Notes: generated from the sequence alone by a model not told the origin. 54,437 bases of DNA from Alphaproteobacteria bacterium (GCA_016735395.1 JAERRO010000007.1:1-54437), one strand, 5' to 3'. Positions 1 to 24,092 are shown, counted from the first letter of the stretch. Numbers and translations: made by a program.

Positions 1-82
1 AAATTCTACTACAGTTTTAAGAAAAATTATTTTTCCCAGAATCTCCCATATTTTTTTAAAAAATCTCTACCCCCAACCCCCT

Positions 83-119
83 CACAAAACTTGACAAACA
101 AGAATTAAAGCTCAACAGA
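83..119 (+). repeat. 37-nt dispersed repeat containing TTGACA (other copies at 920-956 and 1247-1280)
   Basis: CACAAAACTTGACAAACAAGAATTAAAGCTCAACAGA is identical at 83 and 920 and near-identical at 1247. Confidence 0.9.
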
Positions 120-120
120 C

Positions 121-290
121 ACCCACGAGATATGACGGTTATCCCACGGAGTAATAAAATTTATATATGTATAACAATTATATATGCATAACTATCATAT
201 ATCATAGATATATGATAGTTATTCCACGGAGTAATAATAAAATACATTTTATTATTACGACCCGTCTGCAGAATAATCTGCAGACTTTTT
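121..290 (+). repeat. Structured repeat unit, copy 1 (41-nt leader, two AT-rich hairpins, terminator hairpin); candidate ncRNA
   Basis: 121-161 is identical to 524-564; perfect 16-bp inverted repeat 188-203/207-222; 12-bp stem 231-258; 9-bp stem 264-285 plus T5. Confidence 0.85.
264..290 (+). terminator. Intrinsic terminator-like hairpin (also at 659-685 and 1101-1127)
   Basis: GTCTGCAGA-ATAA-TCTGCAGAC-TTTTT. Confidence 0.65.
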
Positions 291-364
291 AAAACCAGCA
301 ACAAAGCACAAAACAAAAGTCCTTCTCTCCTTCCCAAATTTTCTACTTTTTAATTTAAAAAAAT

Positions 365-393
365 TTGACATTTAAACTAATTCAACCTATACT
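365..393 (+). promoter_or_regulatory. Sigma70-type promoter upstream of repeat copy 2
   Basis: TTGACA (365-370), 17 nt, TATACT (388-393); same hexamers and spacing as the HU promoter. Confidence 0.7.
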
Positions 394-523
394 AAAATAG
401 GTTGTAGAGGAATTTATTCATTTACAACCTACTTATAGACCTTCTAGATACATCAAAATTTATTCTCGCAGAGACTTCGCAAAAAAACACCAACTCAACC
501 TATTATAGAAAATAAGGTCTTAA

Positions 524-685
524 ACCCACGAGATATGACGGTTATCCCACGGAGTAATAAAATTGTAAAATTTATATAAGCATAACAATTATATATCTAT
601 GATATATAATTGTTATTCCACGGAGTGATAAAATTATAAAATAATTTTAGAACGACCCGTCTGCAAAATCCTTTGCAGACTTTTT
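524..685 (+). repeat. Structured repeat unit, copy 2
   Basis: Same leader; 16-bp inverted repeat 582-597/601-616; TAAAATTAT/ATAATTTTA stem within 625-653; stem 659-680 plus T5. Confidence 0.85.
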
Positions 686-985
686 AAAAATATCCCCACC
701 CTACACGATTTCTCAACCTTTCTCCGCCTAGCACAGTCGTTCAACTCCTCGTTTCACAATCTCCCGACCTTTCCACCGCTATCTCTAGATTTTTCCACCG
801 ATCTCCCGATTTTTTTATCTTACCTCCACAATGTTCAAATGTCTCGCCGTCCTCCATTCACGATTATCCGATTTTTCTCCGCCCCTCACGATCCTCCGAC
901 ATCTACCATCTTCACCTCACACAAAACTTGACAAACAAGAATTAAAGCTCAACAGATATACACTCAGCCTATAGTAATATACAGA

Positions 986-1127
986 CATCTCACAAAGTAA
1001 TAAAATTATAGAATTTATATATGCATAACGATTATATATCTATGATATATAATTGTTATTCCGCGGAGTAATAATAAAATACCTTTTATTATTACGACCC
1101 GTCTGCAAAATCCTTTGCAGACTTTTT
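986..1127 (+). repeat. Structured repeat unit, copy 3 (degenerate leader)
   Basis: Inverted repeat 1025-1040/1044-1059 with one G-T pair; stem 1068-1095; stem 1101-1122 plus T5. Confidence 0.85.
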
Positions 1128-1314
1128 CAGATCTTCGATAATATAAAAGACGAAAAAATTACCCCCCTATACTAGATCCGACAGAACGAGAAAAATTTCT
1201 AGTATTCTCTTCCGCAAACTTTCTCCGTTTACCCCCCGCCACACAGCACAAACTTGACAAACAAGAATTAAAGCTCGACAAACACCCACTCAACCTATAG
1301 TAATATGTACGAGT

Positions 1315-2397
1315 TCACAGATCTAGGTATTTATCGAAGTTATCGACGACGAGATGCCCTATTTTATCGAATGTTTTGTTTCCTATTGTCTTTAACTTTT
1401 CGTGATTCAGAAGTTTTTTCATAGTTTCATTAAACACCTTTTGTGTAATTGTATCTTCGTAGAAAATCGCAGATCCGTTTATTTTATGAATTTGCGATGC
1501 ATTTAATTTCTGATGATTTCCGAACGATTTTGAGATAGGGATGATGACTGCGGTTCTTTTCGAAGCTACTATTTCAAAGATTCCTGCTCCGGCTCTAGCG
1601 ATAATGAGGTCGGCCCATTGAAACTGTTTTGGCATATCATAGAAGAATTCGTAGAATTTCACATCTACCTTTGCCTTGTTGTATATATTTTTTGCGATTG
1701 GTCTGCTATCGACTTTCATGGCTTGTCGGATATGTATTTTGCCTCGTAAATTTGGAGTTATTCCTGCGATTAATTTTACTAGGTCGTTCATAAAAAAGCG
1801 AGAGTTTTGCGATCCTGCGACGATCAGAATATTGAAGTCGTCATTTTCGTTACGATCTTTAGATTTGATCTTCAAGAATTCTTTTCTAACGGGCATCCCC
1901 ACATTGTGTTGTGTTATATTTAGTGGTATCCCTGCGGTATTTTTGAAGGAGGTAAATAGTTTTACTTTAATTTTAGGTAATTTTAGGACGAAGGAATTTA
2001 GATTACTTAAAACGGCATTTTGTTCGTGCAGGACGATATTTTGTCCGGTTAGATATCCTGCTAGGACAGTTGGGAAGCTTGCATAGCTTCCGAACGATAT
2101 GACTAAATCAGGTCTTTTTACGATCATCGACAGCACCATACGAACGGAGTATAACCCTGCGACAAGTATCCTTATGACTTTGTTATGTATTTTTCCTACG
2201 AGGAAAGACTTCAACCTCATAGTAATGATATTGGCACCTTTAGGGAAGATATCGTCAAAAAGATTTTTACCTTTGAGATCCGTAGTCATAGTCACCTCGT
2301 ATCCTCTATCTAGAATTGACTTTGCGATAACGGATGCTGGCACGGTATGTCCCCCGCTTCCTCCTGTAGCTATAATAATGTACTTCCGTCTAGTCAT
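1315..2397 (-). CDS. murG: Lipid II GlcNAc transferase MurG
   Basis: TGGSGGH, FGSYASFP, HEQNA, VGMPVR, AGSQ and ARAGA motifs. Confidence 0.95.
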   Translation of the reverse strand: MTRRKYIIIATGGSGGHTVPASVIAKSILDRGYEVTMTTDLKGKNLFDDIFPKGANIITMRLKSFLVGKIHNKVIRILVAGLYSVRMVLSMIVKRPDLVISFGSYASFPTVLAGYLTGQNIVLHEQNAVLSNLNSFVLKLPKIKVKLFTSFKNTAGIPLNITQHNVGMPVRKEFLKIKSKDRNENDDFNILIVAGSQNSRFFMNDLVKLIAGITPNLRGKIHIRQAMKVDSRPIAKNIYNKAKVDVKFYEFFYDMPKQFQWADLIIARAGAGIFEIVASKRTAVIIPISKSFGNHQKLNASQIHKINGSAIFYEDTITQKVFNETMKKLLNHEKLKTIGNKTFDKIGHLVVDNFDKYLDL

Positions 2398-15619: not shown

Positions 15620-16906
15620 TTAACTTCTATTCATAAGTTCGAAGAACCCTTGATTAGATTTAGTACTTTTAATTTTATCTAGTAAAAATTCTATGGCATC
15701 TACTGGTGTCATAGGATTAAGAATTCGACGAAGCACCCAAAGTTTAGCGAGTTCGTCTTTATCTATGAGCAGTTCTTCTTTTCTAGTCGCAGATTTGACG
15801 ATATCGATGGCAGGGTAAACTCTACGGTCGGCAATTTTTCTATTTAGAAGTATCTCGGAATTACCTGTACCTTTAAACTCTTCGAAGATAACTTCGTCCA
15901 TTTTAGAACCGGTCTCGATAAGAGCAGTAGCTATAATAGTCAGAGATCCACCCTCTTCTATATTTCGAGCCGCCCCAAAGAACCTTTTAGGTTTTTGCAA
16001 TGCGGAGACATCTACTCCACCTGAAAGCACCTTACCCGAGGACGGCACGGCCGTATTATAAGCTCTAGCAAGTCTAGTAATAGAGTCCAGCAAAACTATA
16101 ACATCTTTTCCGTATTCTACGAGCCTTTTAGCCTTTTCTATAACCATCTCTGCGACACGGATATGTTGAGAGGCAGGTTCATCGAAGGTAGAAGAAATAA
16201 CTTCACCTCTAACAGTCCTCTGCATATCGGTAACTTCTTCAGGTCGTTCGTCTACTAGTAGAACAAACAACTTCACATCTGGATAATTCTCATTGATAGA
16301 TTGAGCTATAGATTGTAATAGCATAGTTTTACCTGTCTTCGGCGGAGCTACTATCAGAGACCTCTGTCCCTTTCCTGTAGGAGAGATAATATCGATGACT
16401 CTTCCAGGAACACCTGCTAGATTTTTCTTTGGATCATCTTTATGTTCGACCTCTAGTTTCCACTTTTCTTGTGGGTATAGAGGGGTTAGATCTTCGAATC
16501 TAATTCTATGTTTAAGATCTTGAACAGGTTTTTCATTAACATTCTCTACAGATTGAACAGAAAAGTAATTTTCTCCATCGAGAGGCGGTTTAACTACACA
16601 CTGAATATTATCTCCTGTCTTTAGACCTAGAGATCTTATAAAATTGTTAGGCACATATATATCGTCTGGCGAGGCTAAATAATTAGACTCTAGAGATCTT
16701 ATAAAGCCGTATCTTTCTGGAAGTATATGAATAGTCCCTTCCCCATGGATCTCGGCAGACTCATCTTCGGCCCACTTTTTCAGTATTTCTACTCGCAGTC
16801 TTTTTACTCCTAGTTGAGAAGAGTTTTCTATATTGAGTTCTTCTGCTATGGAAATAAGTTTACTAGCAGATTGACTTTTGAGGTCTTGAATAAATAGTGT
16901 TTTCAT
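15620..16906 (-). CDS. rho: Transcription termination factor Rho
   Basis: [44 protein letters not shown]. Confidence 0.99.
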
Positions 16907-23180: not shown

Positions 23181-23573
23181 TTATCTATTCATTTTTTTGA
23201 GATAATTATTTAAAGAGTTTAAAATTTTAGATTCTTGATCGCCAGAAAAAATTTCTATCTGTTCTATCTGTTCTATTATTTTTTCAACAAAACTACTACT
23301 TACCACCCCTTTAACAGAGTAGTTATTTGGTATCTTTATAATAGGATGACAAGAAAGATAACTATCTTTATCAAGATAAAAACATTCTTCTTTTGTTATT
23401 TTAATACAGTGATACATCGGTCTATTTTTTGAGTTAATTTTCAAACACCACCCTTCACTAATATAAACACAGACTGCTATGATATTGTCATCTGGATCTT
23501 TTCCTCTAAAATTTTGTAATGCATCAAACATCACAACATCGCCTACACTAAGATCGCCAGGAGTAAAGTCCAT
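23181..23573 (-). CDS. Putative toxin, probable MazF/PemK-like fold
   Basis: Abuts the Panacea gene (TAA-ATG); GDVV..VCV..INS..YLDKDSYLSC..G pattern with a C-terminal helix. Confidence 0.5.
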   Translation of the reverse strand: MDFTPGDLSVGDVVMFDALQNFRGKDPDDNIIAVCVYISEGWCLKINSKNRPMYHCIKITKEECFYLDKDSYLSCHPIIKIPNNYSVKGVVSSSFVEKIIEQIEQIEIFSGDQESKILNSLNNYLKKMNR

Positions 23574-24092
23574 TTAAATTACCATAAGTTTTGAGATTTT
23601 TTTTAATTCTTCTTTTAATTCTTCGTCATTTATCATATCTTCAAAAGGAATTGGCGGAGAATTAGACTCCCTATTTTTACGAGCTTTTTTCCAACATTCT
23701 TCATTGTGATTTTTAGTTTCAACTTCAGAAAAATCTAAATTATCATATTCTTTTATTCCAAAATCTAGTGCTTCCAAGTCGCTTTTTGATAGCATTGATA
23801 AATTTGCGGGTCTAGACACGGATAAAATATTCTTATCGACTTTTGTAAAAGGAAAGTCTTTGTTTATATCATTTTGCTTAATGATATCGTATATTCCTAC
23901 AGGCACTGTTCCGTATCTCATTGCTACATAGTTGTCTCCAGTTATAGGTCTTCCATATGTATTTAAATGATACCTTTCAGCCTCAAAAAAAACTTTTATT
24001 ATATTATATTGATCAGACTTATTCATCTTATCTATAACATATAACAAAGCCTCTAAAGCCTTTTTGTAATTAGGTGTAAACTCAATAGAAAT
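23574..24092 (-). CDS. Panacea/SocA (DUF4065) family antitoxin; start extended to ATT at 24092
   Basis: KALEALLY, K..F.AE..HL..YGRPITGD.YVAM.YG.VP, LSKSD.EAL, H...W motifs. Confidence 0.82.
   Translation of the reverse strand: MSIEFTPNYKKALEALLYVIDKMNKSDQYNIIKVFFEAERYHLNTYGRPITGDNYVAMRYGTVPVGIYDIIKQNDINKDFPFTKVDKNILSVSRPANLSMLSKSDLEALDFGIKEYDNLDFSEVETKNHNEECWKKARKNRESNSPPIPFEDMINDEELKEELKKISKLMVI

Follow-up and report, generated by a model that had tools for sequence, protein, structure and literature searches.

A modular intergenic repeat family with terminator-like 3' ends in a 0.67-Mb host-associated alphaproteobacterial genome

What is the function, if any, of 1.3 kb of hairpin-rich DNA that opens a contig of a very small bacterial genome? 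The stretch in question (the window, 54,437 nucleotides from Alphaproteobacteria bacterium) is the complete contig C7 of a 674-kb assembly (23 contigs, 93.5% complete), and its sequence is present in two public runs, both labelled annelid metagenome. An earlier note, made from the window's sequence, had recognised in its beginning three copies of a hairpin element, interpreted as a local array of small-RNA genes, with no open reading frame (ORF) of 60 amino acids or more; the longest ORF in positions 1-1310 has indeed 58. Our analysis suggests a different identity: the first 1.3 kb is probably an array belonging to a modular intergenic repeat which is specific to the lineage and has an intrinsic terminator built in. 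The family is new in sequence and belongs in kind with the BIME, BOX, SPRITE and NIME elements of other bacteria.

The three units in the window are co-oriented on the + strand, at 121-294, 524-689 and 961-1131, and share one order: a leader, a 16-bp AT-rich hairpin (hairpin 1), a linker, a second AT-rich hairpin (hairpin 2), CGACCC, a 9-bp GC-rich hairpin and five Ts (T5). The linker has the consensus YCCRCGGAG and reads TCCACGGAG or TCCGCGGAG at 223, 617 and 1060. The leader of unit 1 (121-187) already contains one linker (CCCACGGAG, 143-151) and, further on (171-185), the orphan 5' arm of a hairpin; it is followed by hairpin 1 with its linker (188-231), where the hairpin occupies 188-222 (16 bp, loop ATA, 100% complementary) and the linker TCCACGGAG 223-231, and then by an intrinsic-terminator-like 3' end (231-290) made of hairpin 2 at 231-258, CGACCC, the 9-bp GC hairpin at 264-285 and T5. 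Unit 2 has a linker within its leader at 546, hairpin 1 at 582-616 (16 bp, 100% complementary), the linker at 617-625, hairpin 2 at 629-649 with a stem that differs from those of the other units, and the terminator hairpin at 659-680 with its T5. The leaders of these two units are copies of the 3' arm of hairpin 1 plus the linker. Unit 3 starts with a second leader type, followed by hairpin 1 at 1025-1059 (94% complementary; on the + strand one G faces a T), the linker TCCGCGGAG at 1060-1068, hairpin 2 at 1068-1095, the terminator hairpin at 1101-1122 and T5. Everything that the earlier note had placed in these units is found where it said, including the differences between copies: TATC/GATA in hairpin 1 of one unit against AATT/AATT in another, the single G opposite T of unit 3, the different hairpin 2 of unit 2, and a swap of G-C for A-T in the last stem. 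When folded as RNA, the 114-115-nt cores form exactly three hairpins (z-scores -8.4 to -10.9), and both strands fold to the same hairpins (-5.3 to -10.9), so that folding does not pick out a strand. All folds also show a pairing that encloses hairpin 2, between the linker's GG and the CC of CGACC. The linker is itself palindromic, perfectly or nearly so, over its central 8 nt.

The units are not confined to the window. A covariance model built on the terminal 114 nt from 32 training rows recovers 43 units in the assembly at E<=1.5e-10, plus C9:22855-22965 (contig:positions, as for all loci below) at 5.5e-9, that is, the 32 training rows and 12 new units; nhmmer gives 64 matches and BLAST 127 pieces. 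Sequence similar to positions 1-1310 totals 12.9 kb of the assembly, while the arrays, by limits which we set ourselves, add up to 16.1 kb or 2.4% of it. With dozens of copies scattered over a dozen or more arrays, each up to 1.5 kb long, the local three-copy small-RNA array of the earlier note gives way to a dispersed family, and an origin of replication or cruciform cluster, which it had offered as an alternative, is excluded by the same spread over many loci. Contigs C2, C4, C5, C11 and C16 have both ends in arrays, as have the starts of C3, C7 and C10 and the ends of C9 and C23. These are about 15 of the 46 contig ends, and the breaks of the assembly there are largely explained by the repeat. 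Two arrays, C23:21085-22560 and C16:2100-3540, are fully internal to their contigs, with unique genes on both sides. There are also diverged solitary copies, at C1:7523-7632, C1:19418-19534 and C9:22855-22965, which keep all three hairpins on largely different stems; the two on contig C1 retain CCACGGAG and CGACC unchanged, although 37-39 of their ~114 positions differ from the nearest unit. At the end of contig C1, which also carries the ribosomal RNA (rRNA) genes, C1:19100-20177 (-) contains three P1-like boxes (P1 is defined below) and a direct repeat of at least ~100 nt, 800 nt apart (20177-20077 against 19377-19277), so this contig end is also repeat-bound.

All arrays can be mapped to a small kit of modules that vary in number and order: spacer modules F, S, C1, C2 and P1 (the spacers C1 and C2 are not to be confused with the contigs so numbered), a P2 box, L modules and a terminal T module. 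An L module is a palindromic hairpin, then YCCRCGRAG, then an A/T-rich tail, and is found one to five times per unit, while the T module, one per unit, comprises hairpin 2, CGACCC, the GC hairpin and the T-run. Within an array the order is P2, L modules and T, with shared spacers, and all units have the same orientation; in the window the modules run F P1 L L T S P2 L L T C1 C2 P1 P2 L L T P1 P2. The P2 box is conserved over 28 nt, with the usual core CAACCTATAGTAATAT and 12 conserved nt preceding, and 22 of the 26 boxes within two mismatches lie in arrays. Spacer F (15-40, +) also follows terminators in arrays on contigs C2, C4, C5 and C16. The P1 box has copies at 87, 924 and 1250, the first of them spanning 87-120 (+), the second forming a P1-P2 pair at 924-980 (+) with the P2 core CAGCCTATAGTAATAT. 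The C-rich spacers C1 and C2 (693-845, +) are repeated on contigs C23, C2 and C11 at 85-89% identity. A variant of the T module without the GC hairpin and T-run, with the next hairpin module directly after, is seen at C5:79-150, C5:208-280, C23:21225-21300 and C23:21581-21655; if transcribed, units with this variant would read through into the next one.

Strand specificity resides in the 3' end of the unit. The terminator hairpins with T5 at 264-290, 659-685 and 1101-1127 have 9-bp stems with 4-5 G-C pairs and a 4-nt loop, on the + strand only, and the region contains 5 terminator-like sites compared with 0.6 +/- 0.8 in shuffles. All 35 extracted units (37 regular-expression hits minus 2 false ones), including the diverged copies on contig C1, show the same 9-bp GC-rich stem, 4-nt loop and run of T5-T8 on one strand only. 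By this anatomy the 3' end is a predicted intrinsic terminator, and a strand-specific one. The placement of the arrays is consistent with such a role: 17 of the 19 visible array edges abut the 3' end of a neighbouring raw ORF (one-sided binomial against 0.5, ~4e-4, by our own arithmetic and on uncurated ORFs), with the start of C3 and the first array of C16 abutting 5' ends, and both fully visible arrays sit between converging genes. In the window a murG-like glycosyltransferase gene (1315-2397, -; best NCBIfam hit murG, E 6.7e-45, below the equivalog cut-off) converges on the array. Positions 1-1310 stop 9 nt short of its stop codon, the 3' edge of the array being the last P1 and P2 boxes (1250-1306, +).

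Does each unit then have a promoter of its own, as a small-RNA gene would? The rRNA operon promoter of this organism is TTGACA-17-TATATT. In the window the promoter scan lists only module S (365-434, +), upstream of unit 2, with TTGACA-17 nt-TATACT at 365-393 (11/12 matches) followed by a 19-bp imperfect hairpin at 395-434. Of the three RNAs envisaged in the earlier note, only the one from unit 2 would thus have an upstream sigma-70-type promoter; the conserved P2 box, which precedes many units, fails the scan. P2 shares the -10 region of S (-10-like TATAGT) and has no -35 at 16-18 nt, the TTGACA of P1 lying 36 nt upstream; P1 itself has no -10 hexamer at 16-18 nt. Since P2 lacks a -35 at the proper distance and the scan lists only S, most units appear to be without a recognisable sigma-70 promoter. 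Module S could drive a transcript through unit 2. Transcription of an array's first unit would come from read-through of the gene upstream, and further units may not be transcribed at all. Module S is also found at C16:2880-2950, C16:3385-3455 and C22:14216-14284 (-), so that three copies, including that of the window, are in arrays and one is alone. The solitary copy sits between two + strand ORFs in the opposite direction and could be a small transcription unit of its own.

The pairing of the hairpins is clearly kept, but on which molecule? We aligned 32 terminal units and treated the three helices as 32 column pairs, with hairpin 1 represented by its outer 10 pairs only, which are in register for all classes. 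Standard pairs fill 95.8% of 1019 cells (cells counting sequences, not events), compared with 82.3 +/- 0.7% in shuffles and 31-49% with slid partners. Changes on both sides are seen in 20 of the 32 pairs, and none of 500 shuffles reaches any of the five pairing measures, so the earlier claim that structure is being maintained stands. Hairpin 1 exists in 14 different perfectly paired versions among 88 linker-motif hits, ~50 of which have a stem of at least 10 bp (our count), and hairpin 2 in at least five paired versions, including A-U, G.U and G-C at one position. That the pairing is kept is not by itself a sign of RNA, since the hairpins are DNA palindromes and fold equally on either strand. 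The wobble test favours no strand, with 7 G.T cells against 5 A.C cells in the 32 units; among single-mismatch hairpins we count 6 G.T events against 1 A.C (one-sided p ~0.06), which is suggestive only and is not counted as evidence. At C11:91, C5:568, C23:21162 and C23:21581 the hairpin is chimeric: its left and right arms come from different classes and leave two mismatches. Template switching during replication is described as creating and maintaining perfect hairpins and as homogenising the arms of inverted repeats (PMC8794818, PMC8604942), and compensated changes can therefore arise in one step at the DNA level. The perfect palindromes are probably kept partly by such arm-to-arm copying in DNA replication as well as by selection.

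How, then, could a repeat of this kind be maintained? We propose that the units terminate transcription, the first unit of an array ending the transcript of the upstream gene, and that further copies in the array would be harmless, most of them being passengers rather than genes. Homologous recombination or gene conversion between copies would let the arrays lengthen and swap segments, a process that appears to be ongoing, as suggested by the chimeric hairpin arms and by near-identical units in different arrays. For 26 of the 32 units the nearest relative is in another array, mostly at 1-9 differences and with a minimum of a single base between arrays, and multi-module stretches are shared between loci, for example window 543-1127 and C11:264-806 at 78% identity. 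The enzyme that originally spread the repeat may have been lost or may be unassembled. In the assembly, Y1/RAYT, IS110, rve and TnpB-type families give no hit above cut-offs (for RAYT, Y1, PF01797, there are 0 matches even at E<=1), no transposase was found, models of integron integrase score far below cut-offs, and the only two tyrosine recombinases have XerC and XerD as best hits. The palindromic element akin to a MITE (miniature inverted-repeat transposable element), another alternative of the earlier note, agrees with the dozens of copies. It fails on terminal inverted repeats, none of which were found at unit ends, where leader and P2 box or T-run are not reverse complements and the only inverted repeats are the internal hairpins. 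As to target-site duplications, of the two arrays with both flanks available the C23 array has on each side a 9-nt AT-rich word that is also the end of the P2 box, and C16 has none that is clear. Without terminal inverted repeats or clear duplications the element is not a textbook MITE.

Several observations do not sit easily with a terminator repeat. The unpaired CCACGGAG and CGACC, intact in the two most diverged copies, look like a sequence-specific constraint going beyond what a terminator needs. The solitary copy at C1:7523-7632 lies opposite to the direction of the 5S rRNA operon and so cannot terminate that operon. The conserved P2 box, with its -10-like TATAGT, precedes many units, and terminators beyond the first in an array are without obvious use. 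Finally, none of the marks of mobility was seen, neither an insertion polymorphism nor an empty site nor a target duplication.

Some of these points would be accommodated by a multicopy family of structured small RNAs, with P2 as a -35-less promoter and each unit producing an RNA of ~150-350 nt that ends at its own terminator, which we regard as possible but rather unlikely. The CCACGGAG and CGACC motifs would be recognised by a protein or RNA, and the variable stems would be no more than a scaffold. Such a family would account for the strong covariation in all three helices, for the invariance of the unpaired motifs even in the diverged copies, for the pairing of linker GG with the CC of CGACC, and for the full promoter in module S ahead of unit 2. 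It would also explain why P2 boxes stand before many units and P2-like boxes ~65-75 nt upstream of the solitary copies on contig C1. One of these, C1:7523-7632 (-), with its P2-like box ~75 nt upstream, lies ~150 nt after the 5S rRNA gene on the opposite strand, between two + strand genes, as a free-standing gene would, and is the best candidate for a free-standing gene of the hairpin-terminator family. P2, however, fails a sigma-70 scan in an organism whose rRNA promoter is a complete one, and TATAGT has been lost from P2 in window units 1 and 2. The arrays start with a hairpin module and finish with a bare P2 aimed into the converging gene, unlike the bounds of transcription units; neither Hfq nor CsrA was found in the 93.5%-complete assembly (the best match to CsrA, PF02599, has E 0.14 and is inside a 611-amino-acid frame); G.T cells are not clearly above A.C cells; and chimeric hairpins with two mismatches persist. 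No homologue was found in genomes of the same order, either in 40 searched as DNA or in 60 searched with the covariance model, none of which belongs to the same genus or family. Were the units nevertheless transcribed as discrete RNAs, they would be among the largest bacterial RNA gene families relative to genome size. In its most explicit form, which we find unlikely, this proposal makes every unit, in more than 40 copies, a complete gene for a structured RNA of ~170 nt, having a P2-box promoter, variable scaffold hairpins, an invariant internal loop of CCACGGAG and CGACC around hairpin 2, and its own terminator, in a family private to the symbiont lineage that has multiplied to ~2% of a 0.67-Mb genome. 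The RNA could then be a decoy for some protein or a selfish element at the RNA level, and its hypervariable yet perfectly paired stems would reflect selection on shape alone. Known families of tandem sibling small-RNA genes number 2-5 copies, found at one or two loci and all having a clear promoter; the units share with them the co-oriented copies, the hairpins and a terminator for each copy, but number more than 40 at many loci, most without a recognisable promoter.

A less probable reading, and in our opinion a doubtful one, moves the function to the DNA: the perfect AT-rich palindromes and their constant flanks would be binding or recombination sites and P2 an attachment point, with units inserted serially as cassettes by the Xer pair or by a lost recombinase. 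This would explain the edges of the arrays, since the P2 core is the exact end point of 5 among the 10 visible 3' edges, with a degenerate copy ending a sixth, several 5' edges consist of the degenerate 3' part of P2 plus a leader, and the C23 array is bounded on both sides by the same 9-nt word. The equally good hairpins on both strands, the palindromic centre of the linker and the presence of Xer-like recombinases only would also fit. On the other hand, the T-run and the terminator geometry are strand-specific and are not needed for a DNA site, no integron-type or other extra recombinase was found in the assembly (an integron cassette array is rejected for the lack of an integron integrase), no pair of empty and occupied sites was seen, and the 5' edges are not at one fixed point. 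Elements that exploit Xer are known to target the single dif site rather than many loci, which would also count against this proposal.

An assembly artefact, that is a collapsed or chimeric contig end with no biological array, is suggested by the position at the contig start, by the lack of a public contig spanning the region and by the many alternative joints that map into it, but is very improbable given the two arrays internal to contigs C23 and C16, the pieces held without differences by two runs, the 39.8-kb public contig that enters the window array at 1247, and the fact that such joints are what other arrays of the family would give. The comparison with public contigs, which bears on the earlier note's concern about misassembly, thus supports the sequence locally, with short contigs matching 144-215, 355-545, 1100-1276 and 1247 onward without differences, while the order of modules across the array rests on the original assembly. 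Summed word depth in repeat bins relative to neighbouring unique bins reaches ~49x in run X1 and ~50-75x in X2, and since this depth is not a copy number, it matches the 43 assembled units only roughly.

The terminator-bearing repeat that we favour can be placed among described families. The NIME elements, in which dRS3 alternates with RS units, have a short constant repeat alternating with variable segments in intergenic DNA, and their units are not known to be hairpin-terminators. Our arrays resemble them in being intergenic and in this alternation, and differ in organism, in sequence and in having hairpin-terminator units. The closest parallel for the 3' end is SPRITE of S. pneumoniae, described as similar to Rho-independent terminators and enriched at the 3' ends of convergent genes, a placement that its authors read as tolerance of insertions behind genes with possible co-option as terminators (PMC3049150). 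Both repeats are interspersed and AT-rich, have a stem followed by a U-rich tract, and prefer the 3' ends of convergent genes. SPRITE, however, has a single 18-bp stem and is not described as forming arrays, in contrast to the present repeat, which has three hairpins, linkers that do not vary and several modules, and forms arrays that reach 1.5 kb; judging from the description, the two appear to share no sequence similarity. BOX elements of the same species (67-637 bp, with a variable number of internal boxes) are likewise modular, highly base-paired when transcribed, and contain open frames that are probably untranslated; as characterised there, they differ in their terminal inverted repeats and target-site duplications, neither of which is seen here, where the hairpin modules are direct repeats ending in a terminator (PMC3049150). 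From what is described of REP/BIME clusters and REPINs, these too are short intergenic palindromes in mosaic arrays behind genes, with pairing kept among copies (PMC3333891, PMC3337134). No Y1/RAYT gene was found in the present, 93.5%-complete assembly, unlike REP/REPIN-RAYT systems; the modules are co-oriented, while REPs in BIMEs and REPINs are described as inverted pairs (PMC3337134); and the stems are AT-rich, 12-17 bp long and very variable with constant flanks, again unlike REPs.

Searches elsewhere are in line with a family private to this lineage. The earlier note had recognised no tRNA, rRNA, tmRNA, RNase P, SRP or 6S RNA here, and in Rfam window positions 1-1500 have no match near a gathering score even at E<=10, nor is there any on 12 array loci (22.9 kb), while contig C1 gives rRNA and transfer RNA genes only. 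Plasmids and phages yield no blastn match. The linker as an IUPAC pattern matches genome_contigs 3 times and metagenome_contigs 4 times, always singly and about as often as chance would give; the one examined of these 7 (L014) lies in GC-rich sequence, unlike the repeat, and was taken as a chance match. A CRISPR-like array is rejected, as the variable parts are palindromic and the constant parts are not.

The repeat matters beyond this locus. A host-associated genome of 0.67 Mb would usually be expected to contain few repeats. Here one family makes up ~2% of the assembly and is behind about a third of its contig breaks, so knowing it should help in closing this genome. The 14 perfectly paired versions of hairpin 1 between constant flanks are also suitable material for comparing RNA selection with arm-to-arm copying.

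A few minor features remain. A frame is open through some units, at window 167-292, C4:6348-6641 (-; up to 98 amino acids) and C16:179-454, with similar peptides. A coding function was rejected, as the units range from 110 to 117 nt with length differences that are not multiples of three, and their changes fall in pairs within stems; the frame is best taken as an accident of an AT-rich repeat, as for BOX elements. At C9:23000-23130 and 23530-23640 (-) a ~130-nt repeat with GC-rich hairpins, outside the kit of the window, stands twice ahead of hairpin-terminator units. The window also contains a gene for the Rho termination factor (16523-16741, -, within a 431-amino-acid frame), so the organism has factor-dependent termination as well.

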